From Bdellovibrionales bacterium (GTDB taxonomy: Bacteria > Bdellovibrionota > Bdellovibrionia > Bdellovibrionales > UBA1609), in contig OZ241967.1 in the NCBI GenBank assembly GCA_965204055.1, positions 834,144 to 898,143 on the forward strand: a stretch of 64,000 nt of DNA, read 5' to 3'. Under the pieces are notes generated by a model. It searched no databases. It was not told where the DNA came from and saw only the letters and a program-made list of their open reading frames with translations. Below, piece after piece: positions 24,977 through 57,662 of the stretch (within the stretch, counting starts at the first letter, position 1; every line of letters starts with the position of its first letter). The position numbers and the translations under genes were made by a program.

Positions 24977-25037
24977 CCTTGTTACTGTGGAATAACCTTG
25001 TTACTGTGGAATAACCTTGTTACTGTGGAATAACCTT
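24962..25037 (+). repeat. 19-bp exact tandem repeat x4 containing the glmS stop codon
   Basis: GTTACTGTGGAATAACCTT occurs at 24962, 24981, 25000 and 25019. Copy 1 encodes the last glmS codons (VTVE) plus the TAA stop. Confidence 0.95.
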
Positions 25038-25040
25038 GGT

Positions 25041-26021
25041 ATGAAAAAAATAGATTTTTTATTAATTATTGGAATTTTGATCTTGTGTTTCGGATATTAT
25101 TTGTGGCAGGAGCAAAGTCATCCAGATCAGCAAAAACAACAAGGGCAAAAAATGTTCCGAAGACACCAGAAAGACATAAAACCTTGGAAAAAAAATGTGC
25201 CAGTTCGTTCTGAACGCCTTGAACAAGAAATAACAGATCCTTATGAAAAGGCCCTTCAAATTTATTTATCAATAAATGAGGGGATAAAAATATCTGCTAA
25301 CCAATATGAAATGAAACAGCGCAAATATTCAGAAGACTTAACACAGGCAAAAGAATCTCTTGCACAATACCTGGAGGTCACTAAAAAGAGTTCTGTAGAA
25401 GGAGAGGTTGTTAAGGAAATGGTGCGAAAAAATTATGAAGTGGCTTTTAAGGAACTTTATATCATAGTTCAAAGTTCTGCAATGGGTATGCAGTCTATTA
25501 GTGGAGTGGGTGAAAAACTTAAAAAATCTGTTGAGTTTTATAAAAAGTCAGGTCGTCCCTGGAGAAAAGGTTCAGAGGTTTTTTTTATTAAATCTGTAAG
25601 CGATCATTTATACCATAGAGAAAAAATGAAAGAAATTTTTCAGAATATGGAAAACTCATTGAATGAATATGGTGAATCTATACAGAAACTAATTTCACTT
25701 TCTTCTTCCTCAGTAGATTTGTCTAAAGAGCTTAAAGGGTATTACAGATTAAAAGAAACAGACCCTGATAAAGCTAAAAAACTTTTTAAAGAAAATAAGG
25801 GTAAACTGGTTATAAAACAAAAAGATATTAAAGAGTCGATGACTGCTCTGGAAAAAACAGTGGAGCTTAAAATAGATGAATTTACAAAAATGGTTCCTGA
25901 TTTTATTTATCATATGGAATTGTCTTTAAGGGCACTTGAAAAAGTAAGTAAATATTCCCCAATACAGAGAGGGCTTTCTAATTCCATAAAACATCTTTCT
26001 ACTGCAATATTAAAACAGTAG
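25041..26021 (+). CDS. hypothetical membrane-anchored coiled-coil protein
   Basis: ATG at 25041 gives MKKIDFLLIIGILILCFGYYLW (N-terminal TM helix), followed by a K/E-rich helical region. The track ORF start at 25017 lies inside the 19-bp repeat. Confidence 0.55.
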   Translation: MKKIDFLLIIGILILCFGYYLWQEQSHPDQQKQQGQKMFRRHQKDIKPWKKNVPVRSERLEQEITDPYEKALQIYLSINEGIKISANQYEMKQRKYSEDLTQAKESLAQYLEVTKKSSVEGEVVKEMVRKNYEVAFKELYIIVQSSAMGMQSISGVGEKLKKSVEFYKKSGRPWRKGSEVFFIKSVSDHLYHREKMKEIFQNMENSLNEYGESIQKLISLSSSSVDLSKELKGYYRLKETDPDKAKKLFKENKGKLVIKQKDIKESMTALEKTVELKIDEFTKMVPDFIYHMELSLRALEKVSKYSPIQRGLSNSIKHLSTAILKQ

Positions 26022-26032
26022 CTTTACTTCTT

Positions 26033-26069
26033 CCCGCGGTGTCACTAAACAATAATAACACACGCGGGG
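26033..26069. terminator. possible bidirectional terminator hairpin between convergent genes
   Basis: CCCGCGGTGT ... ACACGCGGGG is an imperfect inverted repeat with a ~17-nt loop. No clear T-run. Confidence 0.35.
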
Positions 26070-26085
26070 GCAATAAATAACCCAA

Positions 26086-26553
26086 TTAACGACAGAGTTT
26101 AAACTTAAGTTGCATTTTAGTGATAAGCTGTATGGCCATTTTTTCGTGAATTTTACACATTTTCAGCTCATCTTTGCGATGAGTTTTTTGGCTGGTAGTC
26201 AAAGAACTGGTTTCTAACTCCATTTCATAATCTAATTTATTAGATCGGATAGCTTCTAACTCTTTAGCCTGTTGCTTGAACAGCTTGTTTACTTTATGCA
26301 CAGGGGCCACATCTAACCAGTCCTTTTTAGCTTTATACCATATCAGCTTTTTTTTAAACCGAGCTTTATTTTTAGCCAGGACAAACGAAGGGTATTGAGA
26401 CTCATCCACATCCAAGATGTTTTTGATTTTGTCTAAATTGGCAATATCTTCATCTTCCATAATAGAAGAAAACGCACTTACGGGCGGTTGGGTTGTATTG
26501 GCCTGAGGTGATTGATTGGTTTGCGATAACGCAGAATTTACGGGAACACTCAC
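26086..26553 (-). CDS. hypothetical protein
   Basis: GTG start preceded by GGAGGA at good spacing. Q/T/P-rich N-terminus and K-rich helical C-terminus. No recognisable motif. Confidence 0.5.
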   Translation of the reverse strand: MSVPVNSALSQTNQSPQANTTQPPVSAFSSIMEDEDIANLDKIKNILDVDESQYPSFVLAKNKARFKKKLIWYKAKKDWLDVAPVHKVNKLFKQQAKELEAIRSNKLDYEMELETSSLTTSQKTHRKDELKMCKIHEKMAIQLITKMQLKFKLCR

Positions 26554-26814
26554 TTTGATCCTCCTTATTTTATTTTATGTTGTAACTGATTTTATATTTA
26601 TATAAGAACACGCCTTCTAACACTCATTGACGAGATTAAATCTAACAAATATTTTTCTTTTTGTCAAATTATGCATAAAAACCGTTTTTTTGAGGATAAT
26701 TCAAAGAATAACGCACCGCAAAAAAGTGAATATTGGCGTAAAAGAGCTTTTTTATTGAGAATTAGCCTCTATTTTTTATTTGTGCTCTGCTTTTTTTGAA
26801 GATAGTATCAGCTC

Positions 26815-28137
26815 ATGTCTGCTAAAACCTCCTCCAGTGTTTTATCCAGCTGGGGAATTTTTGCTGGTCTCATAGTGGGGACCCTGATTGGTTTTCTATT
26901 CCACGAATGGGGAGCAAACCCTGTTCGGGACTGGCTCTTGGTAAATCTTGTTGCTCCCTTAGGGGATGTGTTTCTTTTTTCTCTTAAAATGATTATTGTT
27001 CCCCTGGTAGCGGGTTCTCTCTTGGTGGGTGTGGTGAACTTAGGAACAGGAAAATTGCTAAAAACCCTGGGTTGGAAAGTTATTTTGTTCTATATGACCA
27101 CTACTTTTTGTGCCATTTTGGTTGGGCAATCCATGATTAACACTTTTAAACCCGGAGTGGGGTTTTCTGAGGAAGTAGCAGAACAGCTGGTTGAGTCTGA
27201 AAAAGACAAGGTGGAAACCTATAAAGAAAAAAGTTCATGGGTGGGTAAATCGCTTTGGCCAGGCATTGTGAGTAAAATTATCCCACAAAATATTCTGCGG
27301 GAATATGCTAATACTAATATGCTGGCTATTATCTTTGTATCCATTTTATTTGGAATGGCCTTGTTGGGAATGCAAACAGGCCCTCCTAAAGAGGCTTTTG
27401 TGGGCTTTTTTTCTGCTTTAGCGGATATTTCTGTCAAAGTGGTGGGATGGATCATGAAAATAGCTCCTTATGCCGTGGCCGCCCTCATGATTAAAGTGGT
27501 TGCTAATTTTGGCATAGAGGTCATGTTTAAAGTAATCAAATATGTTTTAGTGGTTGCAGGTGCTCTTCTATTGCAGTTTTTTGTTGTATATGGCTGTATT
27601 CTTAAGTTTTTGCTGAAAATTTCTCCCTTTCAATTTTATAAAAAAGCTATGCCTATTTTTCTAACGGCTTTCAGCACCAGTTCTTCTGCCGCTACCATGC
27701 CCGTCACCATACGTACTTTAGAAAAATCATTTGGAGTTCCAGACAGTATTACCACTTTTAGTGTCCCCATTGGTGTTACAGTCAATATGGACGGCACAGC
27801 CATGTTTGAGGTTGTGGCGGCTCTTTTTATAGCCCAGGTGTTTGGAGTAGATCTTTCCCTTATGGAACACTTTACGCTTATTTTTTTGGTTTTAATCACT
27901 TCTATTGGAGTAGCTGGGGTGCCCGGAGGTTCAATTCCCATTTTAGTAGCCGCTATGGTGTCTATGGGTATACCGGCAGAAGGCATAGCCTTGATTATAG
28001 GTGTGGATCGCCTCTTGGATATGTGTAGAACTGTTACCAATGTTACTGGGGACTCTGTAGCCGCTTTATTCCTGGCCCGCTCAGAAAAAGTCCAGCTTAA
28101 CTTGGACTCCTCTTTTCATTCTAACCATTCCGTATAA
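26815..28137 (+). CDS. dicarboxylate/amino acid:cation symporter (GltP/DctA, SLC1-like)
   Basis: Polytopic membrane protein with FSTSSSAATMP, NMDGTA and VDRLLDMCRTVTNVTGD motifs. Confidence 0.9.
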   Translation: MSAKTSSSVLSSWGIFAGLIVGTLIGFLFHEWGANPVRDWLLVNLVAPLGDVFLFSLKMIIVPLVAGSLLVGVVNLGTGKLLKTLGWKVILFYMTTTFCAILVGQSMINTFKPGVGFSEEVAEQLVESEKDKVETYKEKSSWVGKSLWPGIVSKIIPQNILREYANTNMLAIIFVSILFGMALLGMQTGPPKEAFVGFFSALADISVKVVGWIMKIAPYAVAALMIKVVANFGIEVMFKVIKYVLVVAGALLLQFFVVYGCILKFLLKISPFQFYKKAMPIFLTAFSTSSSAATMPVTIRTLEKSFGVPDSITTFSVPIGVTVNMDGTAMFEVVAALFIAQVFGVDLSLMEHFTLIFLVLITSIGVAGVPGGSIPILVAAMVSMGIPAEGIALIIGVDRLLDMCRTVTNVTGDSVAALFLARSEKVQLNLDSSFHSNHSV

Positions 28138-28146
28138 TATATATAT

Positions 28147-31100
28147 ATGCGAAATGGCTCTCTGTTTATTTTTTTTCTATTGTTTTTCTCATCTGGACGC
28201 GTTTTCTCTATGAATAAGGTCCAACCCTCCGATGTGGATTACTACATACATAAAAACCCCTCCTTTTCTTTGATTTTTAATAAGGATTTCTTAAAAAATA
28301 ACAAAAGGGATTTGATATATATTCATAAAAAGCTTTCCTATTACGATGATATTTACCGAGAAATATTTACTAAAAAACTAAAAGAAACCCCTATTTATAT
28401 TTTTGCTTCTTCAAATAATCAAATTTCAAATGCAGTTACCTCAGGTATACCTTTTTTAAAGGTGTTATTTTTCCCAACAGGAGTGGAAAAAATGACACAT
28501 ATAGCTACTACTTCGTGGGAGGACACTGTAATAGCACATGAATTGGCTCACACCTTTCAGTTGGGGCAAATGTCAGACAGCTTGAAATACATAAAGCCCG
28601 TTTTTAAAAATTCAGAAGTTATCTTTCTGCCTATCCCTATTTTTTTAAATGTCAATTTAACTATGCCTCTTTTTTTATTGGAAGGTCATGCCGTTCTTAG
28701 TGAATCTCTTTTTGCTCCAGGGGGTAGGCTTTACAGTGGATCGGCTCGCGCTATGGTTTTTTCTCAAATAAAAAACAAATTTCAAACAACCAATCAGTTT
28801 ATAAAACATTATTTGATAAACAGAACAAGAGACTCCTTTTCCGTCCAGCAACAATACACTCACGGAGGGTATTTTTTTAATTCTTTATTGCAAAAATATG
28901 ATATAAAAACTATTAACAACATTTTTAAAAAACATGCAGAACATTTTATTGCCCCTTTTTCTTTTATTTCTGTTAAATCTACTTTTGAAAGTGTTTTTGG
29001 TGCCAGTTTTGAAAGTCTGGTTAATCATTATATCCAAAAATATCTCCTTCTATCTGAACAGCAAAAAAAATCTCCTGAAAAAACTTTATTTAAAAGTGCT
29101 ATTTGCCCCCCTTTTAATAGAACTCAAAAAGAGATTTTTTTTCTTACTTCAAATTTAAAAAGCACACCCACCTTAAGAATCTTAAATCTTTCTACAAAAA
29201 AATGGAGAAAAAGAAAAAAAGTTTTTTCAGTAGGAAAAGTTTTTAAAATTAAAAATCGCTACTATGTTTCTACTTCTGCAAAAATTAGCTCAAAAAAGAT
29301 AATTTACGGATTATTTTCTGAAGGTATGGGCAGTATGTATTTTAAAAAATATAAATCACAGAATATGCAAGATATATATAAAGATCAGACACTTTCTATT
29401 GATACAAGTAATAATATGCACGGCTTTAACCTTATGTTAAATGGCAAATTTTACGATACAACCCATTCTCCTGCTCTATTTGGCCCAGAAGGGGATATAT
29501 ATTACTTTAAACAAGAAGGGGACCAAAGAGTTATGCACAAAAACAAAATCCCTTTGTTTCAATTTAGGGGGTTTTATGGAAAACCTGTGGGAGTGGATTT
29601 AGGTGGCATTGTTTATTTTATATCTGCTTCTCTTTTTGGTTCTTCTTTATACGCATGGATTCCTGAAGTGGGTATTCAGAGGGTATCCCCGTCTGATGTG
29701 ATAATAGATGCTGTTCCAGGGCCAAACCATCAGTTTCTGGTCTGTGAAGTGGAGCCAGAGTCTTATGCTTATAAAATAATACCTATAAGAGCCTCTAATG
29801 AACAACCGGTTTTTTATGAATATCCTTTTGAAACTGTTTCGAACTCTTTGTCTACTCTACCTTCTTTATCTCACATTAAAACGGAGCAATCTCGTAAAAT
29901 GTTAACAGAAAATCCAGATCCTTTTCAAGAAGATGCTTCGTATCTGGAAGAGCTAAAAAAAATAGATCAAACAGAAGACGCAACATATAAGTCTAAAGAA
30001 GAAACGGAAGGGGTAGGAGGGGCAGATCCATTAAGCTCTCCCGTATCTCCTCACTTTGATTTGTCTTATTCTTCATCTGTAAAACCTCATTCCCATAATA
30101 TTCCCTATTCCCGTTATAATTCCCTGATGAATATTAGTTTTAGTGGCATAGAGTTAGGGGCGTTTCGTGATCCTATTACGGAATATAATAGCCTGGTAAA
30201 AGCTCATTTTCAGGATCCTTTGGAATACAATTCTTTTCACTTTGCTTATCAGCAATCCCTTGAAAACTGGATAAATGTTAAAAGTTGGGCACCAAAAAAT
30301 TGGATGTTTCAAACAAAATACATGAATAGGGCTTATATTTTATCATGGGATGTCCAATACACTTACAAACAAGGACCGGAAAACTTTTCTGGTTCCAGAG
30401 CTTACTCTTATATCCATGAATTTAGTCAAGGGTTTTTATTTCCGATATTTGAATTTGGTTATTGGAACTCGGCCTTTTCCGTTAAAAATAGTCTTTCTTC
30501 TCTGGAAATAAAAGACAGATCAGACACCTCTTATTATTTTAGCACAGAACCAACCCTTCAGCTTCAATATAGAAGAAAATACAAAAAAAACTTTGATTTT
30601 TATAGAAAATTTTTATTAAAAACCGGATTACAGTATCGTTTAAAACTCTCCCCGGATAGTGAGTCTAACTATAAAATAAAAGCGCAATCTTATTATCTTT
30701 TTAATTGGGGGTGGGAATTTTACACTCAACCTTTCTTTAATTATCAAACAGCTTTAAAACCAAAGTCTGTTCCTTTTCGTTATTTAAAACCATTAGATAT
30801 AGTGGGCGCGCCTACTTTAAATCTTTTTTTAGAAAAAAGACTACTGGAAGAAACTAATGAATATCTTTCTACAGGGATAAATTTTCAAAAATTTATTGAA
30901 ACCCCAGTTTACTTTTCACGATACCCTCTTTCTTTAAGAGGGATAGCCCCTTTATTTAAAGGCAAGTATTTTTCTTTTTTGGACAATGACGATAATAAAT
31001 ATTTGCATTTTGCGGAATGGACTTTTGGTATCAAAACAGAATTGTTGTTTCACCATAAAGTGAAGGTGACACTCAATTTTTATACAGGTTATAGCCATCC

Positions 31101-31242
31101 TCTGAATTTTAATTTTTTAGATAAGGATATAAAAAAGAAAAGGGGAAACCAGGCAAAAAAACCAGGAAAAACCTCTCGAACCTTAAAAGCAGGTTTAAGC
31201 CATAATTTTCAATTTGGTATTCAACTTAAGTCCCACTTTTAA
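28147..31242 (+). CDS. large secreted protein with an HExxH motif and an OMP-like C-terminus
   Basis: Signal peptide. HELAH at 28537-28551 (VIAHELAHTFQLG), followed by LLEGHAV. C-terminal third is rich in alternating aromatic/polar residues and ends ...FQFGIQLKSHF (terminal Phe). Confidence 0.6.
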   Translation: MRNGSLFIFFLLFFSSGRVFSMNKVQPSDVDYYIHKNPSFSLIFNKDFLKNNKRDLIYIHKKLSYYDDIYREIFTKKLKETPIYIFASSNNQISNAVTSGIPFLKVLFFPTGVEKMTHIATTSWEDTVIAHELAHTFQLGQMSDSLKYIKPVFKNSEVIFLPIPIFLNVNLTMPLFLLEGHAVLSESLFAPGGRLYSGSARAMVFSQIKNKFQTTNQFIKHYLINRTRDSFSVQQQYTHGGYFFNSLLQKYDIKTINNIFKKHAEHFIAPFSFISVKSTFESVFGASFESLVNHYIQKYLLLSEQQKKSPEKTLFKSAICPPFNRTQKEIFFLTSNLKSTPTLRILNLSTKKWRKRKKVFSVGKVFKIKNRYYVSTSAKISSKKIIYGLFSEGMGSMYFKKYKSQNMQDIYKDQTLSIDTSNNMHGFNLMLNGKFYDTTHSPALFGPEGDIYYFKQEGDQRVMHKNKIPLFQFRGFYGKPVGVDLGGIVYFISASLFGSSLYAWIPEVGIQRVSPSDVIIDAVPGPNHQFLVCEVEPESYAYKIIPIRASNEQPVFYEYPFETVSNSLSTLPSLSHIKTEQSRKMLTENPDPFQEDASYLEELKKIDQTEDATYKSKEETEGVGGADPLSSPVSPHFDLSYSSSVKPHSHNIPYSRYNSLMNISFSGIELGAFRDPITEYNSLVKAHFQDPLEYNSFHFAYQQSLENWINVKSWAPKNWMFQTKYMNRAYILSWDVQYTYKQGPENFSGSRAYSYIHEFSQGFLFPIFEFGYWNSAFSVKNSLSSLEIKDRSDTSYYFSTEPTLQLQYRRKYKKNFDFYRKFLLKTGLQYRLKLSPDSESNYKIKAQSYYLFNWGWEFYTQPFFNYQTALKPKSVPFRYLKPLDIVGAPTLNLFLEKRLLEETNEYLSTGINFQKFIETPVYFSRYPLSLRGIAPLFKGKYFSFLDNDDNKYLHFAEWTFGIKTELLFHHKVKVTLNFYTGYSHPLNFNFLDKDIKKKRGNQAKKPGKTSRTLKAGLSHNFQFGIQLKSHF

Positions 31243-31255
31243 ATTAAACAGAGGA

Positions 31256-31412
31256 TTAACTGAGTCACCTGTGCAAAACCCTGCTCATCCTTGTTAAACT
31301 AAAAATCCAAGTTGTTGGCTCTGCAAAGCCAAATCATTGGCTTTGCAGTCCCTTGAGGAGCTGGAATCTTGCTGGTTTTAAGAGGATGTGACTCAAGCCA
31401 TTTACTTAACTG
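31256..31412. mobile_element. MITE-like repeat module (variant TIR) with CTGCAAAGCC hairpin
   Basis: TTAACTGAGTCACCTGTGCAAAAC ... GATGTGACTCAAGCCATTTACTTAACTG. Internal perfect hairpin CTGCAAAGCC-N8-GGCTTTGCAG (31321-31348), followed by the CCCTTGAGGAGCTGGAATCTTGCTGG module that is also seen at 37815-37850. Confidence 0.45.
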
Positions 31413-31483
31413 AACGGATTTATTCAGGATTGGTTCATTTTTCTTGCAATTATTTTCAAAACTTTTTATACAAACATTAGATT

Positions 31484-32500
31484 ATGGAATTAAAAAATAA
31501 AAAAAAACTTAAAGTGGGTATTAATGGTTTTGGCCGGATTGGCCGTTGCCTGTTTCGCCTCAGTTTTAAAGATCTGGATATTGTAGCTATAAACAGTCGC
31601 TCTTCTGTTCAGATGGCGGGGCATTTATTAAAATACGACAGTGTTCACGGGATATACCCTCATCCGATTTCTATTGTAGACAATCATCAGCTAAAGGTGG
31701 GAGATAAAAAGATCGCGTATAGCTCTTATCCTCATCCTTCTGAAATTCCTTGGGATAAGTGGGAGGTGGATTGGGTATTGGAATGTTCTGGGTTTTTTAA
31801 AAAAAGGGAAGATTTAAAAGGGCATTTTAAAGAAGGTGCAAAACGGGTTTTTGTATCCGCACCCGCAGAAGGGGAAGATTTTACTCTCATATACGGAGTA
31901 AACCACAAAAGCTTTCAGCCGGAAAAACATAAAATCATCAGTAACGGTTCTTGCACTACCAACTGTTTAGCTCCTCTGATAAAAGTGTTGGACAAAAATT
32001 TTAAGCTTCAAGATTTAATATTTACAACTGTGCATGCCTATACTCAGGATCAAAAGCTTTTAGATTCTTCACACAAAAAAGATTTGCGACGGGCGCGCTC
32101 TGCCCCTCTTTCTATGATTCCCACTACGACGGGTGCAGTTAAAACATTAACCCGTGTGTTTCCGAACTTAAAAGGCCGGATTAACGGGATGGCCGTTCGT
32201 GTCCCTACCGCTAATGTGAGTTTGATAGATTTGGTATTTCGATCTCAGGTTAAAACCAGTGTGCAGGCTGTAAACTCTGCTTTTTTATCCGCTGAAAAAT
32301 CAGATTTAAAAGGGGTGCTGGCTTGTGAAGAAAAAGAACTGGTGAGTATGGATTTTAATGGGAGTCTTTATAGTGCTATTTTGGATCTTTCCTGCACAAT
32401 GCAGACGGAAGAAGGGTTGGTAAAAGTGTTGGCTTGGTATGACAATGAAATGGGTTTTTCCCAAAGAATGATCGATTTTATAAAATGTGTGCCTGTTTAA
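31484..32500 (+). CDS. gap: glyceraldehyde-3-phosphate dehydrogenase
   Basis: NGFGRIGR Rossmann motif, active site SNGSCTTNCLAP, and WYDNE near the C-terminus. Confidence 0.95.
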   Translation: MELKNKKKLKVGINGFGRIGRCLFRLSFKDLDIVAINSRSSVQMAGHLLKYDSVHGIYPHPISIVDNHQLKVGDKKIAYSSYPHPSEIPWDKWEVDWVLECSGFFKKREDLKGHFKEGAKRVFVSAPAEGEDFTLIYGVNHKSFQPEKHKIISNGSCTTNCLAPLIKVLDKNFKLQDLIFTTVHAYTQDQKLLDSSHKKDLRRARSAPLSMIPTTTGAVKTLTRVFPNLKGRINGMAVRVPTANVSLIDLVFRSQVKTSVQAVNSAFLSAEKSDLKGVLACEEKELVSMDFNGSLYSAILDLSCTMQTEEGLVKVLAWYDNEMGFSQRMIDFIKCVPV

Positions 32501-32507
32501 TTTATAG

Positions 32508-33748
32508 ATGAGTAGCCTTTTTATGTCTAATTCAAAATTATATTCTATTGATGACTTTGATTTAAAAAATAAAACCGTTTTTATTCGAACAGATTTTAAT
32601 ATTCCTGTTAAAGATGGAAAGGTAGAAGATCATATTCGTCTTAAACGGTCCTTGCCCACTCTCCAATACGGTTTAGAGCAAAAAGCTAAAATTATTATTG
32701 GGAGTCACCGAGGACGCCCTACAGCAACTAATAAACAGAAATTAAGTTTAGAACCTTTTGGCTATTATCTATGCAAAAAATTAAACTGTGAGATCCTGTT
32801 TATTGAGGACCTAAGCGAGGCTTTGCCATCTCCTTTGCTTTCCTCTTTAAGTGAAAAAAAAATTATTTTGTTAGAAAATTTGCGCTTTCATCCTGGCGAA
32901 GAAAAGGGGGATGAAGATTGGGCAGAGCAAATTTCTTCTTATGTGGATGTTTACATTAATGAGGCTTTTAGCGTTTGTCATAGGCACCATGCCAGCGTGG
33001 GAGTCCTTCCTCGGAAGGTGAAAATGAGAGGGCAAGGTTTTTCCATGAGAAAAGAAAGAGAGACATTGGATTACCTGCGTAACCACTCTTTATCTCCTTT
33101 TTTGTTGTTAGTAGGGGGGGTGAAGGTGGGTGATAAGATAAAAGCTATTAGCCGTTTAATGGATCGTGTGGATTCGGTTTTAATAGGGGGGGTGATGCTT
33201 ATATGGCTTATACTTTTTTAAAAGCGAAAGGGATGTTTACAGGAGAGGCTTTTGCACAAGAAGAAAATCTAAAGCTTGCAGAAGAGTTTATGAATCGTCT
33301 CCAGGTTCGAGGGAAAAAGTTATTATTGCCTGTGGATCATATTGTGTCGCCGGTTAACGGAGATAAAAATCAAGCACGAGTTGTTCCTATTGCTGAAATG
33401 CCAAAAGGATTTTGTCATAAAGATATAGGGCCTGAGACTGTTAAACTTTTTTCAGAGGCTTTAAGCACAGCTCGCACAATATTTTGGAACGGCCCTCTTG
33501 GCCAGTTTGAAGATCCATTATTTGCAAGTGGCACTTTTTCTATATGCGAGGCCATATCTAATGCAAAAAAAGCTTTTCGGGTGGTAGGAGGAGGAGATTC
33601 CCTATCCGCTGTTTTAAAGTCCGGCCAACAAGATGGTTTTGATTATATCTCTACAGGAGGTGGGGCGAGTTTAAAATACTTAGAACAAGGGAGCCTCCCT
33701 GGCATTCAAAGTTTAATAACCCATTTCTCAAACAAAAAGCCCACCTAA
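32508..33748 (+). pseudogene. pgk: phosphoglycerate kinase, split into two ORFs by an 8-nt duplication
   Basis: ORF 32508-33221 is the Pgk N-domain (FIRTDFNIP, GSHRGRP) and ends ...LIGGVMLIWLILF*. ORF 33203-33748 starts MAYTFLKAKG and holds the C-domain (WNGPLGQFE, GGGDS, STGGGASL). The DNA reads GTG ATG CTTAT ATG GCT TAT. Deleting the 8 nt at 33198-33205 joins both ORFs as ...LIGGVMAYTFLKAKG. Confidence 0.9.
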
Positions 33749-33768
33749 AAGATGGGCTAATGTTTTTT
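33738..33768 (+). terminator. possible intrinsic terminator after pgk
   Basis: AGCCCA-CCTAAAAGA-TGGGCT, then AATGTTTTTTT. The stem is short (6 bp). Confidence 0.4.
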
Positions 33769-33803: not shown

Positions 33804-34886
33804 TTATTTGGCTCCCATTACAGTTTGTGCATGTTTGGCCCAGTCTCCTGAGGGATAAGGGAGGAACCTTTGTGTCATATAAGGCACAACACCAACAAGT
33901 GTAGTCATTATCAATCCAGCATATCCAATGGGAGCTGTTGGCGGAAAAACACTTAGTATAACACTAACCGCCATCGCTCCTAATACTGTCATTGTAAGGA
34001 TCTCACAAGTTTGACGATTCATATCTCCACAGATAAGGCTTACTGTTCGGTTTTCATTTTCTTTCGAAAAATACTCTCCAAAGATTTTAGTACTAATTCC
34101 AACGGCACCTAATCCACCAGCTACCAACAAAAAACCCGCTCCCATTCCAGTTATGGGCGTAAAGCTGAGAATACCCCCTATAATAGCAAAAACAGTAGCT
34201 ATTTTTAGTACGATACATTTTTCATCGTCTCCACAGGCAAAATCCATAAACCAGCTTTTTTCTTCACTCATCGAAGCCTCAAGGTGACTTAATACCTCTA
34301 ACTCTTCTGAAGAAATATTGTTTAAGGCTTCAATTCCACCTGTTTCTATTAAAGTGTTAGCTTTATCTATTACACCTTTGTTTACACCTTCCAGAACAGA
34401 TTCTGTAGAAGAGGTAACTCTTTCTTTTAAATTGTCATTGGCTTGTTGTGCCTTCTTAAGAGCCAGTTCTTCCCGCTGAGCTTGAAAATCGCTCGCTTCC
34501 TTTGAACTGCATTCTGCAGTGATTGACGGTATACCTTGTTTAACATACTTTAAGCATTTTCCTTCAGTGTTTAAAAACACCACTACTTCCCGACCGGAAA
34601 TATCACCTTCCTCCAGGTTAGGACCCGCATACAGAACACCCGTGTTATCCACTGGTATTTTCTTAAGCAGGAGATCAAGTCCTGCCAGTATAATATAACC
34701 TTTATGCTCTTCCAGCTCTTGCTCAGTAAAGACTTGTGTAGTTATGTCATCTGTTAAGTTTGCAGGGTTCTGTTTTGTTGTTGATTCTTCAACAGGGTGA
34801 GGTCCTACTGAAAATCCACTTACTGGCAATAAAGACAGGGAAAGCCCTATCAAACAAGTGATGGTTTGGTTATGAGATTTTTTCAT
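33804..34886 (-). CDS. hypothetical exported protein with C-terminal Gly-rich TM helices
   Basis: Signal peptide MKKSHNQTITCLIGLSLSLLPVSG. The C-terminal third has hydrophobic Gly-zipper-like segments (GMGAGFLLVAGGLGAVGIS). Confidence 0.55.
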   Translation of the reverse strand: MKKSHNQTITCLIGLSLSLLPVSGFSVGPHPVEESTTKQNPANLTDDITTQVFTEQELEEHKGYIILAGLDLLLKKIPVDNTGVLYAGPNLEEGDISGREVVVFLNTEGKCLKYVKQGIPSITAECSSKEASDFQAQREELALKKAQQANDNLKERVTSSTESVLEGVNKGVIDKANTLIETGGIEALNNISSEELEVLSHLEASMSEEKSWFMDFACGDDEKCIVLKIATVFAIIGGILSFTPITGMGAGFLLVAGGLGAVGISTKIFGEYFSKENENRTVSLICGDMNRQTCEILTMTVLGAMAVSVILSVFPPTAPIGYAGLIMTTLVGVVPYMTQRFLPYPSGDWAKHAQTVMGAK

Positions 34887-34953
34887 TTTATTACTCCTTT
34901 ATTTATAATTTGTTTATGTTTATTTTATTCATTTTTTTGTTGTTTTTTTATTT

Positions 34954-36618
34954 TTAGTTGTAAAGCTGTTCTAAAAAAGTTTTTTTATCTTTTGTAAAAA
35001 CAGCTTGTATCAGATCTTCAAATATAGGATCTAAAAATACACCAATATGGCCTCCATATTTAGGATTAAACACAGTGATAGCAGGATTCTTTCCGGCAGA
35101 CTTTAAAATTTCTGTAATCGCTTGGGGCTGGCCTCCCGCATTGTAAGATGAAAGCACAGGATCATCCTGAGAGAGATAAATAGTTAAGGGGCGGTCTATT
35201 TGATCCAAGGCTGGTTTTATGTTTGTTTCTTTATCGTAAAGGGTATCTAATTCCCCTTCAGGTAAAACCATCCCACCCAAGTTGACTGGTTTACCTTGAT
35301 AAGCTTCTATTTCAGTCTGAAGGGCACTGTGTAATGTTTCCCTAAAACCAGTGTTAACATAAGCGTTGTAATAACTTAGCTCACCATTAATATTTAATGG
35401 ATCCACTCCTACTGCCTTTAAAGTATCTGCTAAGTCAACATGGGTAAATTCATTAAAAGCTCTTTCTAAAAAGTCCTGAGGATCGTATTCATAATAATCA
35501 ATAATATCTTCCCAGTTCATTTTGAGGTCTCTATGCGCCAGAGCCATAAACACTATATTTTTAAACCCTATTGTGGTAAGGGCTTTGGTGTGTTCAATCT
35601 CGCTAATGGCAGTGTCTAAATTATGGAATATAACTCTCCCGTGCAAAGTAGGGCTAAAAACAGCTCCACCTAAGCCAAAAAGCCTGTTTTCTTTTGTTTG
35701 GGATTCTAACTCTGCATGAAGTGTATTTCTTTGATCCATTTGTGTTTGGCTATCTGTGGCCAATAATTCAATAGCTAAACCTCCGCCTCCTGAAAATCCA
35801 ATAACGCCAGTTTTGAAAGGGTTAGAGTTTATTGTGTTCAAATAAACTCTTAGTCTGGAATATAAATCCCTGGCAATGGATAAGGCGTCCCAAGGGATTT
35901 CGTCACACACTCCTTCTAAAAAGGCAGGAGACAGATAACCTGCAAAAGAGATAATATTAGGATCGTTAAAATGGTTTTCTAAAGCCGATATGGTTTGGTT
36001 GTTAAAAGAACCTCTTTTCCAGGTGGCATAAGCTCCGGGCAATAAGATAAAGGTATGGGGATTTTTTTGTTTAGAAAGCTTTACAAAAGCCTTAATGGGG
36101 TTGGGGCAAACATCAGAATACTTCATAACTTTTCTATAATTTGAATCAGAAATAGGAGGAAGATTAACTTGGTTGTATTGGCTATCGTCCCGCTCTGGTA
36201 AACGGGAATACATACTGGAGACAATAGCCAAATACATAGGATCGTAAGTGGTGACTTGCCCATTGGCTAAAGATTGAGGAGGGGTATCGTTCCCAAAAAC
36301 ACTTTCTTTTAGAACATTTAAAACAGTGCTTCTTTTTTCTTTGTAAGGAGTTTGTATATATGGATAAGTTGTTATCTTTGGGAGCTGGTTCTTTGTTTGT
36401 GGCAAGATAAGGGTATCATCAGTCTTTGGGTTCTGTGGCAGGCCCTTCTTTGGGGTCAGGTCCTTCTTTAGGGGCAGGTCTGGGATATCAGCTAAAGTTT
36501 GAGAAGTGAAAGTGAGTAGAAATAAGCCAATGATCCATGTTAAAAAATGTTTTTTCATTTTTTTAGCATGGGTTGATAATGTTATGTATGTAAGAGTATT
36601 GTCTAAAATTTTTTTCAT
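34954..36618 (-). CDS. secreted alpha/beta-hydrolase-like protein
   Basis: SD AAGGAGA before the 36618 start. Hydrophobic signal segment FLTWIIGLFLLTFTSQTLA. GxSxG-type elbow in VIGFSGGGGLA. Candidate catalytic His in YGGHIGVF near the C-terminus. Confidence 0.5.
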   Translation of the reverse strand: MKKILDNTLTYITLSTHAKKMKKHFLTWIIGLFLLTFTSQTLADIPDLPLKKDLTPKKGLPQNPKTDDTLILPQTKNQLPKITTYPYIQTPYKEKRSTVLNVLKESVFGNDTPPQSLANGQVTTYDPMYLAIVSSMYSRLPERDDSQYNQVNLPPISDSNYRKVMKYSDVCPNPIKAFVKLSKQKNPHTFILLPGAYATWKRGSFNNQTISALENHFNDPNIISFAGYLSPAFLEGVCDEIPWDALSIARDLYSRLRVYLNTINSNPFKTGVIGFSGGGGLAIELLATDSQTQMDQRNTLHAELESQTKENRLFGLGGAVFSPTLHGRVIFHNLDTAISEIEHTKALTTIGFKNIVFMALAHRDLKMNWEDIIDYYEYDPQDFLERAFNEFTHVDLADTLKAVGVDPLNINGELSYYNAYVNTGFRETLHSALQTEIEAYQGKPVNLGGMVLPEGELDTLYDKETNIKPALDQIDRPLTIYLSQDDPVLSSYNAGGQPQAITEILKSAGKNPAITVFNPKYGGHIGVFLDPIFEDLIQAVFTKDKKTFLEQLYN

Positions 36619-36682: not shown

Positions 36683-37050
36683 ATTCCTCTGTAAAGCCAA
36701 GTACTTGGCTTTACAGTCTCGCGCTTCAGTGGGAATCTCTTGACTCTAAAACCGCAAAAAAGCTTTTTTTCAAAATCAATATCTTACTATATGCAAGATA
36801 GAGAGCATATTAGAAGATATTTTTATAACATACTGGAATCACTAAAACTTTTTATTTTACTAAAGTAAAGAAAAAAAGGTGGAGATTGTATTTTTTTTAA
36901 ATAGGTGTGAATTTTTTACATACCCTCATATAAATATTTTACAGGAATTATTCCTCCGTGCAAAATCTTTATTATTTTCTCTAAACTGAAAAGTCCAACT
37001 GCTTACTTTTTAGTTCTGCCTTGAGCTGGAGTTTTGCCGGTTTGGAGCAA
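36683..37050. repeat. degenerate MITE-derived modules downstream of lipB
   Basis: Hairpin CTGTAAAGCC-AAGTACTT-GGCTTTACAG (36689-36716). TTCAGTGGGAATCTC module. A TIR-like AATTATTCCTCCGTGCAAAATC at 36947, followed by a decayed copy of the hairpin and the GAGCTGGAGTTTTGCCGG module. Confidence 0.4.
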
Positions 37051-37100
37051 AATAAGTTCTGTGTTACTTTGTTATAACAATTTTTTTCACTTTCCACAGA

Positions 37101-37793
37101 TTATTTGTTAAGGTGGGAATGAAAAAAAGATTTTGCAGTTTTACACCAAAAAGAAAACACTTCTTTTAGATTTGCAGACACACCTTGATTTTTAAAAGAG
37201 TCGTGTGGGCGATTAAGCACACCACAACTTCTGATTAACTGAAATAGTTTAAGATCATTTTGTATATTGATAGCCAGTCCATGTTGGCTTACCCCACCTG
37301 AAATATGAATACCGAAAAAAGCAATTTTTCCTTTGTTTGTCCAAAGCCCAGCTGAAGTTTCTTTTTTTACAGCAAAGATTCCATATTCTTTTAAAGTAAT
37401 GATGGTGATTTTCTCTAACATAGATAAAAAATCTCTAAGGCGAATTTTCCACTTTAAAAGCTCCATGATGGGGTAAATGACTAATTGTCCTGGGGAGTGT
37501 AAAGTGGCTTGTCCTCCTCTTTTTATAGGCACAATTTCTATTTGTTTTTTTTTGTATTCCTCAATATTGGCACTAAGATCTTTTTCCTTTGTTCCTCTTA
37601 ACCCCAATGTGATGCAGGCAGGGCATTCAAAGCCCAGCAAGAAAGCTTGTCTGTTTTTACTTGCGGATTCTTTTAATTTTTCCTGTAAAGTAAGGCTTTC
37701 TCGATAAGGTAGTCTATCCTTCCAGATAAACTGAATATCTGAACAGTTATTAAAACTTTCTGATGAAAAAGAATTAACAATAGATTTTTCCAT
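37101..37793 (-). CDS. lipB: octanoyltransferase (lipoyl(octanoyl) transferase)
   Basis: RGGQATLHSPGQLVIYPI and KIAFFGIHISGGVSQHGLAINI motifs. The start was set at MEKSIV (37793) because the upstream 25 codons of the track ORF run into a MITE module. Confidence 0.9.
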   Translation of the reverse strand: MEKSIVNSFSSESFNNCSDIQFIWKDRLPYRESLTLQEKLKESASKNRQAFLLGFECPACITLGLRGTKEKDLSANIEEYKKKQIEIVPIKRGGQATLHSPGQLVIYPIMELLKWKIRLRDFLSMLEKITIITLKEYGIFAVKKETSAGLWTNKGKIAFFGIHISGGVSQHGLAINIQNDLKLFQLIRSCGVLNRPHDSFKNQGVSANLKEVFSFWCKTAKSFFHSHLNK

Positions 37794-37804
37794 ATTGTCC
37801 TTTC

Positions 37805-38074
37805 CAGTCGTCATTCTTGCTGAGGAGCTGGAATCTCTGGGTTTTTTAAAAAGATACGCCCCAAGCAATTTATTTAACTAAACACATCACAGTCGACCAA
37901 TTAGTCCTCCGTGATAAACCTTTTTCATCTCTAAACTGCAAAGCCAAGTACTTAGCTTTGCAGACCCTTGAAAGCGGGTATCCAAGACCTAAACTGAAAG
38001 CCTAAAAGTCTTTCAGCCTTTTTCAAGTGGGAATCTAGTTAAAAAAACAATCTTTTTCACGAGGCACTAATTAG
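37805..38074. mobile_element. MITE nest: a partial module followed by a full ~176-bp MITE
   Basis: 37815-37850 CTTGCTGAGGAGCTGGAATCTCTGGG is a module. The full element at 37899-38074 has TIRs AATTAGTCCTCCGTGATAAAC and CTTTTTCACGAGGCACTAATTAG, with internal hairpin CTGCAAAGCC-AAGTACTT-AGCTTTGCAG (37936-37963). Confidence 0.55.
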
Positions 38075-45945: not shown

Positions 45946-46539
45946 CTATTTAACAATTACTTTAATAGAGCTAATTTTTGCATCTGGTGGGTTATCCTCG
46001 CCTGTTATGGGTGGAAAATTATCTGGGTTAAAAATATGGTATTCCAGGTCTTTGTAATTTTTAATAAGATAATCTAAAATTTCTTTTGGCCGGGCATTAG
46101 CATTGATATTAAGATATAAAGTGAGAGTTGTTGAACTATAAGACCCGACAGGAGTGTGAGAAGTGCCGGAACCTAATAAAGCCCAAAAAAGGGAATCTCC
46201 TTTTTCAGGATCGGCATTATGAGAAACCAGGTCCATTCGATGTGTTTTTTTTGTTTTTCTGTTAAAAAAATATCCCACAGGGCTGTTATTGATATAACGA
46301 AACTTTTTTTTCTTATCCTTTGTATTAAGTAAAACTACAGAACCTGCATCTACAGAGTAACTTTTTGTAAAATCAAAAGTGACCTCAGAAGGTACACTAT
46401 ATTGATATTCAAAAGAATAACGAGTGTCATCTACACAAGCGGAGTTTGCACTGAATAAAAAAGCATAGAGGAAGAGCAACTTCCATAGCAAATTATTTAG
46501 CTTGTTCTCTGGCTTATTTTTTGTTTTTCCATTCATTTT
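45946..46539 (-). CDS. hypothetical exported protein, possible lipoprotein
   Basis: The start was set at MNGKTKNK (46539). The signal segment LLWKLLFLYAFLFSANSAC has a lipobox-like Cys. The track ORF start at 46590 reads through the neighbouring gene's repeats in another frame. Confidence 0.5.
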   Translation of the reverse strand, partial: KMNGKTKNKPENKLNNLLWKLLFLYAFLFSANSACVDDTRYSFEYQYSVPSEVTFDFTKSYSVDAGSVVLLNTKDKKKKFRYINNSPVGYFFNRKTKKTHRMDLVSHNADPEKGDSLFWALLGSGTSHTPVGSYSSTTLTLYLNINANARPKEILDYLIKNYKDLEYHIFNPDNFPPITGEDNPPDAKISSIKVIVK

Positions 46540-47137
46540 GTTTACTCCATTCCGGTTGTTTACTCCATTCTGGTTGTTTGCTCCAGTCATTTTGTTTGCT
46601 CCATTCTGGTTGTTTTTCCAGCTCTTTTGTGTGTTCCTTCTCTAACTTTGTTTTCTCCTGTTTTTTTGATTGTGCGGGTTGGTTTGCTAACTCCGTGCTT
46701 GTTTTAAGAGGGTCTGCTCCATATTTATTAACACCTTTTGTTCCTTTTTTTAATAACAATACACCTTCAAAAATTGAAAACATCCCTGTGCAAATTTTGG
46801 ATAAAGCAGGTATATCAGTTATAAAATCAATATGGGTTATAATCATTATTAACCAATAAACCCAACCTGGCAAGCCTAAATCATGCAGTCTTTTTATACT
46901 GGGAAAAGAGAATAAAAAACAAAGAGGGATTATAAGAAAAATAAAGGTTGTTACATCTGATTCCCCCTCTGACAGTTCTCTATCTATTAGTGACTCTATT
47001 CCAATACTTATAATTGCGAACAATAGCAAAAAAAGACCTCCTCCTATAAGTAATATTATTAAGTGTTGAAAGAAATATTTTTTTCGGCCTATTCTGCCTT
47101 TGTAACCGAATAAAGAAGTTTTATTTTTTATAGACAT
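46514..47137 (-). CDS. DUF805-family inner membrane protein with C-terminal W-S-K-Q repeat tail
   Basis: N-terminus SLFGYKGRIGRKKYFFQHL plus KRLHDLGLPGW are DUF805 hallmarks. The C-terminus is KQPEWSKQNDWSKQPEWSKQPEWSKQNEW. Confidence 0.7.
   Translation of the reverse strand: MSIKNKTSLFGYKGRIGRKKYFFQHLIILLIGGGLFLLLFAIISIGIESLIDRELSEGESDVTTFIFLIIPLCFLFSFPSIKRLHDLGLPGWVYWLIMIITHIDFITDIPALSKICTGMFSIFEGVLLLKKGTKGVNKYGADPLKTSTELANQPAQSKKQEKTKLEKEHTKELEKQPEWSKQNDWSKQPEWSKQPEWSKQNEWKNKK
46524..46619. repeat. 18-bp in-frame tandem repeat, ~5 copies
   Basis: Plus-strand units TTACTCCATTCCGGTTGT, TTACTCCATTCTGGTTGT, TTGCTCCAGTCATTTTGT and TTGCTCCATTCTGGTTGT. Confidence 0.9.
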
Positions 47138-49362: not shown

Positions 49363-49803
49363 ATGAGTGATAATAAAATAGTCAGTTTTATCTGGCAAGT
49401 GGCTGAGCTTTTGCGTGGCCCTTATCGTCCCAATCAATATAAAAAAGTTATACTTCCTCTTATAGTTTTAAGAAGGCTGGATTGTGTATTAGAGCCAACA
49501 AAAGAGAAGGTCTTAACAAAAGAAAAAAGTTTAAAAAAAAGCAAAATGAGAAACATAGAATCTATTTTAAATAGAGTAGCTGGTCAAAAATTTTATAACA
49601 AAAGCCATTTTACTTTTGAAAAGTTGAAAGCTGATCCAGATAACATTTCAGCTAATCTTACAAATTTTATAAAAGGTTTTTCTGAAAGAGCCAGGAAAAT
49701 TATTGAACATTTTAATCTTGAAAAAGAGATTGCGGAAATTGAGGCAGATTTAAAAGAGATTGAGGAAGAGATTACAGAGATATTATTGGAGACAGTGGGA
49801 TGA
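49363..49803 (+). pseudogene. hsdM: type I R-M methyltransferase HsdM, in-frame internal deletion remnant
   Basis: The N-terminal HsdM_N domain is present (IVSFIWQVAELLRGPYRPNQYKKVILPLIVLRRLDCVL). It joins directly to a short coiled C-terminal tail. At 146 aa it lacks any SAM-binding or NPPF/Y catalytic motifs. Confidence 0.75.
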
Positions 49804-50858
49804 GTAAAAAAAGAAGTGTGGGAAGCAGTATGATGGAGTTTCTTATTTTTAAAGAGCCATCCGATGGGCCTCAAATTGAAGTCCGCTATGAAAAGGGCAC
49901 TATATGGCTCACACAAAAGCTTATGGCAGAGTTATTTTCTGTGGAAAGATCAGTTATTACAAAGCATTTGGCCAATATTTTTAGCGAAGGGGAGCTGAAC
50001 AAAAATTCAGTATGTGCAAAATTTGCACATACTGCCCCAGATGAAAAAAGCTATAACACCCTGTTTTATAGCTTGGATGCTATTATTTCTGTAGGTTATC
50101 GAGTTAATTCTCACCGGGCGACCCAATTTCGCCAATGGGCCACCCATATTTTAAGAGAATTTGCCATTAAAGGTTATATTTTAGACAAAAAAAGAATGGA
50201 AAACGGCTATTTTCTGGGAGAGGACTATTTTGAACAGTTACTTTCTGAAATCCGGGAAATCCGTCTGAGTGAAAGGCGTTTTTATCAAAAAATCACTGAT
50301 ATTTACACAACCAGCATAGACTACGATAAGGATGCGCCTACCACCCGTGAATTTTTTGCCAAAGTGCAAAATAAGCTTCATTTTGCTGTTCATGGCAAGA
50401 CTTCTGCGGAGCTTATCAGGCAGAGGGCGGGCAGCAAAAAACAAAATATGGGCCTCACAAATTGGGCTAAAAGTCCTGATGGCAAGATTTTAAAAACGGA
50501 TGTTTCTATCGCCAAGAATTATCTTAATTCAGAAGAATTATCAGCTTTAGGTAGAATTGTAAGTGCTTATCTGGACCTGGCAGAAGAAAGAGCTAAGCGC
50601 AAGATTCCTATGACTATGGAGGATTGGGCTAATAGGTTAGATCGTTTTTTGGAGTTTGACGAAAGAGAAATTTTAAAAGATTCTGGAAAAATCAGCCATG
50701 AGTTGGCAAAAAGCTTTGCAGAAAGTGAGTTTGAAAAATATCGTATCATTCAGGACAAGCTTTTTGAATCTGATTTTGATCAGGAAGTTGGGAAATTGGA
50801 AAAGCAGTTAAGAGAAAAACAGAGCGTTGTTAGTCAAAAAACAGATAGAAAAAAATAA
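49800..50858 (+). CDS. rhuM: RhuM-family protein
   Basis: IEVRYEKGTIWLTQKLMAELF...SVCAKF...DAIISVGYRVNSHRATQFRQWATHILREFAIKGY is characteristic of RhuM. The ATGA at 49800-49803 overlaps the hsdM remnant stop. Confidence 0.85.
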   Translation: MSKKRSVGSSMMEFLIFKEPSDGPQIEVRYEKGTIWLTQKLMAELFSVERSVITKHLANIFSEGELNKNSVCAKFAHTAPDEKSYNTLFYSLDAIISVGYRVNSHRATQFRQWATHILREFAIKGYILDKKRMENGYFLGEDYFEQLLSEIREIRLSERRFYQKITDIYTTSIDYDKDAPTTREFFAKVQNKLHFAVHGKTSAELIRQRAGSKKQNMGLTNWAKSPDGKILKTDVSIAKNYLNSEELSALGRIVSAYLDLAEERAKRKIPMTMEDWANRLDRFLEFDEREILKDSGKISHELAKSFAESEFEKYRIIQDKLFESDFDQEVGKLEKQLREKQSVVSQKTDRKK

Positions 50859-50934
50859 AGAAAATGGTTTATCCAAAATCCAGAAGAGTATTGGCCAATG
50901 AAAATTAAAGGCAAATGGGCCATGAGGCGGTGAA

Positions 50935-53624: not shown

Positions 53625-53629
53625 GGTTA

Positions 53630-53707
53630 AACTTGCGACAAACTTGCGACAAGCTTGCGACAAACTTGCGACAAGCTTGCGACAAACTTGCGACAAACTT
53701 TGCGACA
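53630..53707. repeat. 11-bp tandem repeat x7 (A[A/G]CTTGCGACA)
   Basis: Units start at 53630, 53641, 53652, 53663, 53674, 53685 and 53696; the last has one extra T. Lies between the fic stop (53624) and the SD/GTG of the hsdR remnant (53733). Confidence 0.95.
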
Positions 53708-53861
53708 TATTGTAACACAAGGAGGTGTCTAAGTGTCTGATAATACTAAAGAAATCGCCTTTGAGAAGGCTATAGAATGGCACTTATTAAATAAAGGTGG
53801 ATATAGTAAAGGAAAAAGAGAACAATTTGACCCCGTTCGAGGGATGGATCCTGAATTTTAA

Positions 53862-54432: not shown

Positions 54433-54519
54433 TGATTTTATTAAAGAAACTACCAAGAAGAGACTCAGGTCCTTCTTATTATTTTGATGATGATGTTACT
54501 CTTCAGTATTACCGCCTCC

Positions 54520-54784
54520 AGAGAATAAGCGAAAGTTCTATCTCTCTTGAGAGTGGGATAGAAAGTGAAGTATCTGGGCCTACCTCTGTAGGAACAGGAG
54601 TATCAATAGATGAAACCATTGAACTTTCTCATCTGATAGATATTTTAAATGAGCGGTTTGGAACAAGCTTTACACCGGCAGATCAACTGTTCTTGGATTC
54701 CATTAAGGAAGATGCGGTTGCTGATTCTAATTTAAGAGAGGTAGCAATGGCTAATCCGATGGAAAATTTTGGATATATTTTTTT
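54520..54784. repeat. 265-bp direct repeat, copy 1 (target-site duplication of the IS1634-like element)
   Basis: AGAGAATAAGCGAAAG...GGATATATTTTTTT reads identically to 56736-57000 by eye. It ends exactly at the left IR. Confidence 0.95.
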
Positions 54785-56735: not shown

Positions 56736-57000
56736 AGAGAATAAGCGAAAGTTCTATCTCTCTTGAGAGTGGGATAGAAAGTGAAGTATCTGGGCCTACC
56801 TCTGTAGGAACAGGAGTATCAATAGATGAAACCATTGAACTTTCTCATCTGATAGATATTTTAAATGAGCGGTTTGGAACAAGCTTTACACCGGCAGATC
56901 AACTGTTCTTGGATTCCATTAAGGAAGATGCGGTTGCTGATTCTAATTTAAGAGAGGTAGCAATGGCTAATCCGATGGAAAATTTTGGATATATTTTTTT
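56736..57000. repeat. 265-bp direct repeat, copy 2
   Basis: Starts immediately after the right IR and reads identically to 54520-54784. Confidence 0.95.
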
Positions 57001-57027
57001 TAAAAAGCTTGAAGATTTGTTTATAGA

Positions 57028-57621: not shown

Positions 57622-57662
57622 ACAACAAAACAAAATCAAAATTCCAGTTACAGATTAAAAGC

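Follow-up and report, generated by a model that had tools for sequence, protein, structure and literature searches.

An 8-nt insertion splits the phosphoglycerate kinase gene of a Bdellovibrionales genome, possibly a very recent loss-of-function allele

We determined that the phosphoglycerate kinase gene (pgk) in a 64,000-nt stretch of a Bdellovibrionales genome (hereafter the window; G+C 36%) carries a net insertion of 8 nt, such that, in place of one continuous Pgk chain of about 400 amino acids, the frameshift at 33198–33205 leaves two open reading frames (ORFs) of 237 and 181 amino acids. The insertion is specific to one lineage, cuts the C-terminal domain within its core, and is young. 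The explanation that we tentatively favor, as the likeliest of those considered, is that it represents a real, very recent loss-of-function or hypomorphic pgk allele in this one lineage; the slippage-type repeat, the lack of any other template in the window, the clean assembly and the structurally poor cut site all argue for it.

Results

The insertion resembles a 9-nt tandem duplication lacking one base

The first-pass annotation had described pgk, next to an intact gap, as split by an 8-nt near-tandem duplication into two open halves of 237 and 181 amino acids, the second of which begins at the native methionine. Upon rereading the sequence, we confirmed the interruption, the open state and length of both ORFs, and the start of the C-terminal half at a methionine that restores the native sequence; removing 8 nt (33198–33205 or, equivalently, 33195–33202) yields a single, uninterrupted ORF of 410 amino acids that reads ...LIGGVMAYTFLKAKG... 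across the junction. The neighboring gap is likewise intact, its product being 95.9% identical to the 338-residue Gap of a close relative, which has both the Gp_dh_N and the Gp_dh_C domain (dN/dS 0.14).

The description of the duplication, however, held only in part. Although the net insertion relative to the relatives is indeed 8 nt, the repeat unit is 9 nt (ATGGCTTAT) and lacks one G. The affected segment (33183–33221) reads ATA GGG GGG GTG ATG CTT ATA TGG CTT ATA CTT TTT TAA; the first copy, ATG-CTTATA (33195–33203), equals the second, ATGGCTTATA (33203–33212), without one G, and the sole perfect repeat is GCTTATA (33197–33203 and 33206–33212), with a period of 9 nt. The lesion is better described as a local 9-nt in-frame tandem duplication minus one base than as a perfect 8-nt duplication. 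Since one added G would give an in-frame ..GGVMAYMAYTF.., the insert could also reflect a real in-frame duplication combined with a consensus error of 1 nt, a possibility that is weighed below. A search for a template of the inserted bases found no further copy of the junction 13-mer in the 64-kb window.

The two ORFs overlap by 19 nt, the C-terminal one lying in the −1 frame relative to the N-terminal one (Table 1). The true pgk start is likely ATG 32523 (MSNSK..., as in relatives), from which the N-terminal ORF would encode 225 native residues, up to ...LIGGVM, followed by seven out-of-frame residues (LIWLILF) and TAA. Once repaired, the protein aligns end to end with Pgk structures in the PDB (E 1e-94) and retains every invariant column of a 21-sequence alignment, including the equivalents of the ligand-binding residues Lys201 and Tyr223 discussed below. 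No second pgk was found within the 64-kb window of this 2.31-Mb genome.

Table 1. Features of the gap–pgk region of the window and structural elements around the break. Positions are window coordinates or, where stated, residues of the repaired protein.
Feature	Position	Strand	Remarks
gap (glyceraldehyde-3-phosphate dehydrogenase)	31484..32500	+	338-aa ORF, intact, directly upstream of pgk
pgk N-terminal ORF	32508..33221	+	237 aa; Pfam PGK profile 1–218 of 379, E 6e-65
SD-like GGGGGGGTGAT in Gly-Gly-Val-Met codons	33186..33196	+	anti-SD pairing; includes G7 homopolymer 33186–33192
Imperfect tandem duplication ATG-CTTAT / ATGGCTTAT(A)	33195..33212	+	frameshifting lesion; net +8 nt vs all relatives
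pgk C-terminal ORF, MAYTFLKAKG... to native C-terminus	33203..33748	+	181 aa; Pfam PGK profile 216–377 of 379, E 1e-48
N-terminal ORF stop TAA	33219..33221	+	16 nt 3' of the C-terminal ORF ATG; T6 run (33213–33218) just before
G+C-rich hairpin with T/A runs either side	33738..33758		9-pair stem, scored on minus strand; plus strand = AGCCCACCTAAAAGATGGGCTAATGTTTTTTT
Interdomain helix	residues 178–192		AF2 model, repaired Pgk
Strand	residues 198–202		AF2 model, repaired Pgk
Helix	residues 207–217		AF2 model, repaired Pgk
Strand	residues 223–226		AF2 model, repaired Pgk
Helix	residues 228–237		AF2 model, repaired Pgk

It is probable that gap and pgk are co-transcribed, and that the hairpin at 33738–33758, which lies between pgk and the convergent gene at 33804–34886, is a bidirectional terminator closing the gap–pgk unit. 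Within pgk, we also observed a 23-nt internal near-repeat (33101–33123 and 33173–33195, 83% identity, TAGGGGGGGTGA in each copy), which encodes the Gly-Gly-Val turns of consecutive Rossmann strands (LLVGGVK and VLIGGVM) and gives rise to a pair of G7 runs offset by 72 nt.

The insertion is absent from all relatives

A protein search with Pgk returned hundreds of full-length relatives. The 38 matches at 57% identity or more are all 394–427 amino acids long; many of these come from single contigs of 1.0–3.0 Mb and, where named, from Bdellovibrionales or Bdellovibrionia metagenome-assembled genomes. The sole short match at 100% identity was the 237-residue N-terminal half itself, from the one contig of the source genome (2,313,606 bp); in exact-protein look-ups of the two halves and of Gap, a record existed for the N-terminal half only. 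In the closest relative (contig L001; Pgk 89% identical at the amino acid level) the gene is uninterrupted at the break site, where its DNA reads ATA GGA GGG AAG ATG GCT TAT ACT and aligns to the window with a clean 8-column gap, and the motif LIGG-x-MAY(T/A)FLK is unbroken in all 20 aligned relatives. Because of this gap and the 20 uninterrupted relatives, we regard the event as a true lineage-specific insertion rather than a chance repeat. Relative to functional orthologues it is a disabling lesion, as in a pseudogene, and the conservation in related genomes that would mark a natural split is lacking (0 of 20 split, the 89% relative included among the uninterrupted).

A scan of a genome collection gave a 76% identical relative as its best match, and two metagenome scans, one permitting either allele and the other based on a 26-mer common with the relative, gave no match. 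A further contig of interest, L019, with a 96%-identical gap, did not provide an independent copy of the site, as it derives from the relative to which L001 also belongs and stops about 50 nt short of the break.

Several features of the surrounding DNA differ between the window and this relative. Identity to L019/L001 is 97–99% over 26.0–31.2 kb (dS 0.04–0.10), 95–96% in gap (dS 0.14), 85–91% throughout pgk (dS 0.43) and 87% in an LplA/B-like gene at 36836–37829; in the comparison of window positions 26000–33750, divergence steps up at the gap/pgk junction. This pattern places pgk on a recombination or variable-region boundary, and one of the two lineages probably acquired its pgk allele from a more distant source. 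In L019/L001, gap and pgk are separated by an array of a tandem repeat of about 14 nt, (TTAGTTTAACTTTG)n (L019 ~7020–7170, L001 ~1–200), at which the contigs of this relative break; the window lacks this array, its gap–pgk spacing being only 7–22 nt. On the 3' side of pgk, two minus-strand genes (360 and 554 amino acids; 33804–36618) have no Pfam match and signal-peptide- or membrane-like N-termini; L001 has a 211-residue gene in place of this pair. L019 lacks, in turn, a plus-strand ORF of 334 amino acids found in the window at 25017–26021. Both loci are strain-specific differences in gene content flanking gap–pgk. Downstream of pgk in the 76% relative (OZ241456.1), and with the same orientation, lies a 239-residue ORF, possibly tpiA (L002 7104–7823). 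The window and L001 have a convergent gene there instead, so that their sublineage has a rearranged glycolytic operon.

The break falls within the core of the C-terminal domain

In an AlphaFold (AF2) model of the repaired Pgk (pLDDT 91.2), the break, between M230 and A231, comes after the second β-strand of the C-terminal Rossmann domain, between the strand at 223–226 and the helix at 228–237. It is thus about 40–50 residues past the interdomain helix, inside the C-domain Rossmann sheet, and corresponds approximately to residue 238 of yeast PGK, in which the N domain comprises residues 1–185, the hinge 186–204 and the C domain 205–415 (PMC7002912). In the PGK of B. stearothermophilus, Lys201 is a ligand of the β-phosphate and Tyr223 makes a water-mediated contact with the amino group of adenine (PMC7729029). 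According to an ungapped alignment to this enzyme (1PHP, offset +164), the Lys201 equivalent is in the N-terminal piece, while the Tyr223 equivalent is the third residue of the C-terminal piece.

Given the placement of these two residues and the yeast domain borders, GG-x-MAYTFLK belongs to the adenine pocket, not to the hinge. The first-pass annotation had taken it for the conserved hinge motif and had put the break near the end of the N-terminal domain; neither assignment is tenable, as the motif lines the adenine pocket some 40–50 residues into the C-terminal Rossmann domain and the break lies in the C domain, beyond the interdomain helix at 178–192. The cut is therefore neither at a domain border nor in a permissive surface loop, where a natural split would be looked for, but in the C-domain core.

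The lesion is young

Compared with L001, pgk has a dN/dS of 0.139 overall (0.124 in the N-terminal and 0.160 in the C-terminal half; dS 0.43) and, with the 76% relative as the outgroup, 14 unique amino acid changes on the window branch versus 15 on the L001 branch. Neither half contains a second stop or indel. As about 4.9% of the possible substitutions would give a stop in pgk, neutrality would put the age of the lesion below about 0.05 substitutions per site; a hand calculation from the 14:15 ratio leaves room for less than about 15% of the branch of this allele to have passed without constraint. The low dN/dS, the lack of an excess on the branch and the lack of a second lesion together imply that either the break is very young or the gene is still selected. 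With neither relaxed selection nor extra lesions in evidence, the data are compatible only with a very young pseudogene, if with a pseudogene at all.

A recent allele or an artefact of assembly

A real, very recent allele could have arisen as follows. Replication slippage would have duplicated ATGGCTTAT within the conserved GG-x-MAYTFLK of pgk, and one G would have been lost in the duplication event itself or just after it, for a net gain of 8 bp. Translation from the pgk start would then stop eight codons on, after seven junk residues following ...GGVM, and the N-terminal piece would comprise the N domain, which binds 3-phosphoglycerate, and the interdomain helix, but no more of the nucleotide-binding domain than its first β-α-β. 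The second ATG, with a Shine-Dalgarno (SD)-like string before it and the upstream stop overlapping, probably permits some translation of the remaining 181 residues, this string and ATG being an accidental by-product, as we envisage it, of the duplicated Met codon and the conserved Gly codons. Since the cut crosses the C domain at its core β-sheet and adenine pocket, and since the N-terminal piece gains a hydrophobic tail, activity is expected to be lost or strongly reduced; we infer that the split gene is present in cells and that, with its function reduced, it is a nascent pseudogene or hypomorph. There is precedent in viable Campylobacter coli OR12, which is not dependent on sugar catabolism and in which a pgk frameshift null arose (PMC5366326). 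Here, all relatives found keep an intact pgk, even where the genome is a single contig of only 1.0–1.9 Mb, and gap and eno of the window are intact, so that a null would be costly. It also counts against a real young allele that the lesion is known from one assembly, and that two steps (a 9-nt duplication and a 1-nt loss) in a very short time are awkward for natural mutation.

These last points bear on the possibility, which we consider rather doubtful, that the insertion is a consensus or assembly artefact and that pgk in the cells is either intact or has the in-frame 9-nt duplication (..GGVMAYMAYTF..). In that case, the consensus would have dropped one G, or would have merged the reads of co-existing strains column by column, and the 8-nt insert would exist on no molecule. 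The chief support for this is twofold: the insert differs from a perfect 9-nt tandem repeat by exactly one missing base, such that the frame returns once a G is added, and a core gene that is universally retained is frameshifted without other decay, the classic signature of an error. In addition, the genome is represented by a single 2.31-Mb contig, and the relatives derive from metagenome assemblies of long-read style. Moreover, the presence of a closely related strain (97–99% identity upstream) in two samples makes strain mixtures plausible.

However, the assembly appears sound. About 45 other genes of the window, including eno, gap, dnaE, ahcY, glmS, astB and fabH, match Pfam profiles end to end, and many homopolymers of 8–11 nt lie in frame within intact genes, so that random indels are unlikely as a source of error. 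Across about 6.5 kb of coding sequence shared with L019, all indels are multiples of three, and no other frame-breaking error was detected in the 64 kb despite the many intragenic homopolymers. An 8-nt insertion is atypical of the errors of any platform, a random 1-nt error inside a real 9-nt duplication is very improbable at the error rate of this assembly, and the in-frame insertion of MAY into one of the best-conserved Pgk motifs would itself be odd, there being none in 20 relatives. In the course of this survey, we rejected a few other candidates for broken genes: an HtrA ORF that seems truncated merely runs off the window edge, and the pairs at 45946–47137, 49363–50858 and 53923–54821 are not split versions of one family.

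An inherited SD-like string precedes the second ATG

The 20 nt upstream of ATG 33203 form a predicted duplex of −17.7 kcal/mol with the anti-SD sequence, which is the strongest among 41 gene starts; these values assume a canonical anti-SD, as the 16S gene lies outside the window. By comparison, pairing of −6 kcal/mol or lower was found at 16 of the 41 gene starts, and of −10 or lower at 2% of random sites. The first-pass annotation had pointed to this string as ready-made and ideally spaced. Its strength is real, but its spacing is not ideal: the duplication puts the ATG at a distance of 10 nt from the GGNGG core, or of 6 nt if one counts from where the extended GGUGAU pairing ends, while spacers in the SD-led genes of the source genome are 4–8 nt, which makes a core spacer of 10 nt usable rather than ideal. 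Nor did the insertion provide the string. Intact relatives already carry GGAGGGAAG and GGAGGAAGT at the homologous place (−10.8 and −10.2 kcal/mol), because Gly-Gly is encoded as GGA GGR, albeit with only some 3 nt between it and the native Met. The SD-like signal is thus an inherited by-product of the conserved Gly-Gly codons. Translation of the C-terminal piece from ATG 33203 is plausible on these sequence features and, with the stop of the N-terminal ORF only 16 nt further on, termination–reinitiation is conceivable too.

The gene accordingly has one hallmark of a natural split, in that both parts are open and the downstream part has its own start (ATG 33203) and a predicted ribosome-binding site. 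We nevertheless consider it unlikely that pgk encodes a functional two-piece Pgk, both of whose polypeptides are made, assemble non-covalently into an active enzyme and are kept by selection, and a second piece supplied for this purpose by SD-driven initiation or termination–reinitiation at ATG 33203 is unlikely to the same degree. Aminoacyl-tRNA synthetases and adenylate kinase are enzymes that tolerate being split. For Pgk, the open halves retain all invariant residues, the clade seems unable to dispense with pgk, and both gap and eno are intact. Furthermore, the ATG associated with the window's strongest anti-SD match restarts the protein without loss of a residue, shortly before the upstream stop; by our own estimate, a strong SD and an ATG restoring the exact native sequence would be uncommon for a random frameshift (~1–5%), which favors a functional split. 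The domains of yeast PGK can fold in isolation (PMC7002912), which also speaks for such an assembly.

On the other hand, the string is inherited and its core spacing falls outside the 4–8 nt of the genome, and although dN/dS (0.12–0.16) shows no rate excess, a very recent lesion explains the low values equally well. The split occurs in one genome only and in none of 20 or more relatives, the cut is inside the C-domain β-sheet and adenine pocket rather than at a domain border, and LIWLILF, a hydrophobic tail next to the active site, is appended to the N-terminal piece. That selection maintains a natural two-piece Pgk cut in its Rossmann core, in which the latent Gly-Gly SD became usable once the duplication had moved the Met codon, therefore seems less likely still.

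Recoding or phase variation, in which a slip on G7 (33186–33192) or T6 (33213–33218) would yield a full-length Pgk with a three-residue insertion, is very improbable, as is each of its modes (a −1 ribosomal slip, +1-nt RNA polymerase slippage, or a DNA-level change from G7 to G8): although the C-terminal ORF is in the −1 frame, both runs lie between the frameshift and the stop and the G8 product would regain the GGG found in the general consensus of Pgk, no X XXY YYZ heptamer occurs in the zero frame, nor one that lets both tRNAs re-pair, and there is no stable downstream structure (33193–33262, 33222–33300 and 33170–33290, z = +0.9, −0.7 and −0.5 versus shuffles), and no conservation of the two-frame arrangement in relatives; ordinary intact genes of the window have G7 runs too, and the products bear insertions or substitutions in the invariant motif (a −1 slip or +1 nt on G7 is predicted to give ..IGGGDAYMAYTFLK.., a slip at TTT-TAA ..GGVMLIWLILFLKAKG..).

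Other features of the window

Apart from pgk, the window contains a mobile/defense island (49363–56561), in which an ORF comprising only the HsdM N-terminal domain (146 amino acids, no methylase domain found) is followed by RhuM, HsdS (528 amino acids) and a Fic protein, and an IS200-type Y1 transposase by a 151-residue ORF; a DDE transposase lies on the opposite strand. The type I restriction-modification (R-M) system in this island looks incomplete or rearranged. Adjoining it, 1.1 kb without a long ORF (56562–57662) borders a short histidine-kinase ORF (232 amino acids; HisKA and HATPase only, with no sensor part; together 56562–58361), and this kinase may have been shortened by insertion of the neighboring transposase. 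On the minus strand at 5248–9635, a ResIII helicase-type restriction subunit (884 amino acids) is encoded beside an N6/N4 DNA methylase (556 amino acids), a pair that is probably a type III R-M system and would be the second restriction system in these 64 kb.

Discussion

A recent pseudogene, a two-piece Pgk and an artefact had all been proposed at the outset for the split pgk. All three stand, in the order of a tentatively preferred young allele, a rather doubtful artefact and an unlikely two-piece enzyme, although the reading of the break as a hinge or domain border, which had accompanied them, was wrong.

As an event, the insertion adds to a known class of frameshifts, those caused by short tandem duplications (slipped-strand mispairing) in bacterial housekeeping genes, which yield young pseudogenes or split ORFs. 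Its nearest parallel is the pgk frameshift null of lab-passaged C. coli OR12, which likewise has a single small insertion and an early stop in an otherwise pristine coding sequence, and which is viable (PMC5366326). However, while the C. coli allele results from a 1-nt change, the insert described here is 8 nt long, its downstream half keeps a start codon and an SD-like string, and it is known from sequence alone. Compared with the canonical monomeric two-domain Pgk (PF00162; 1PHP, 1VPE, 1QPG), the two ORFs jointly cover the profile, keep the invariant binding residues and give a confident model (pLDDT 91), but the chain in the window is interrupted after the second β-strand of the C domain. 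Work on isolated yeast PGK domains (PMC7002912) and on a circularly permuted yeast PGK (1FW8) indicates that the domains are autonomous folding units and that PGK tolerates some change in connectivity; those cuts were made at the domain border or on the N-domain surface, however, whereas the cut in the window lies inside the C-domain core. The literature that we could search on PGK fragment complementation yielded domain boundaries and the independent folding of domains (PMC7002912), and we found no activity data in it for a cut near this site. Programmed −1 frameshifting and transcriptional slippage of the kind found in dnaX and IS elements share with the window overlapping 0/−1 ORFs, homopolymers and a nearby SD-like element; unlike these systems, the window lacks a canonical slippery heptamer, a stimulatory structure and conservation in relatives.

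Whichever explanation holds, current understanding is little changed, and the value of the observation is chiefly for the annotation of the source genome. If the insertion is an artefact, a consensus error in a deposited complete genome will have been flagged. If the two pieces cooperate, it would be a natural, one-step gene fission that turned a monomeric core enzyme into a heterodimer at a structurally unexpected site. If it is real and inactivating, the organism would just have lost its sole link between 1,3-bisphosphoglycerate and 3-phosphoglycerate while keeping gap and eno, in a clade whose other members all have pgk; this would mean that lower glycolysis and gluconeogenesis have very recently become less necessary, for example through dependence on a prey or host.
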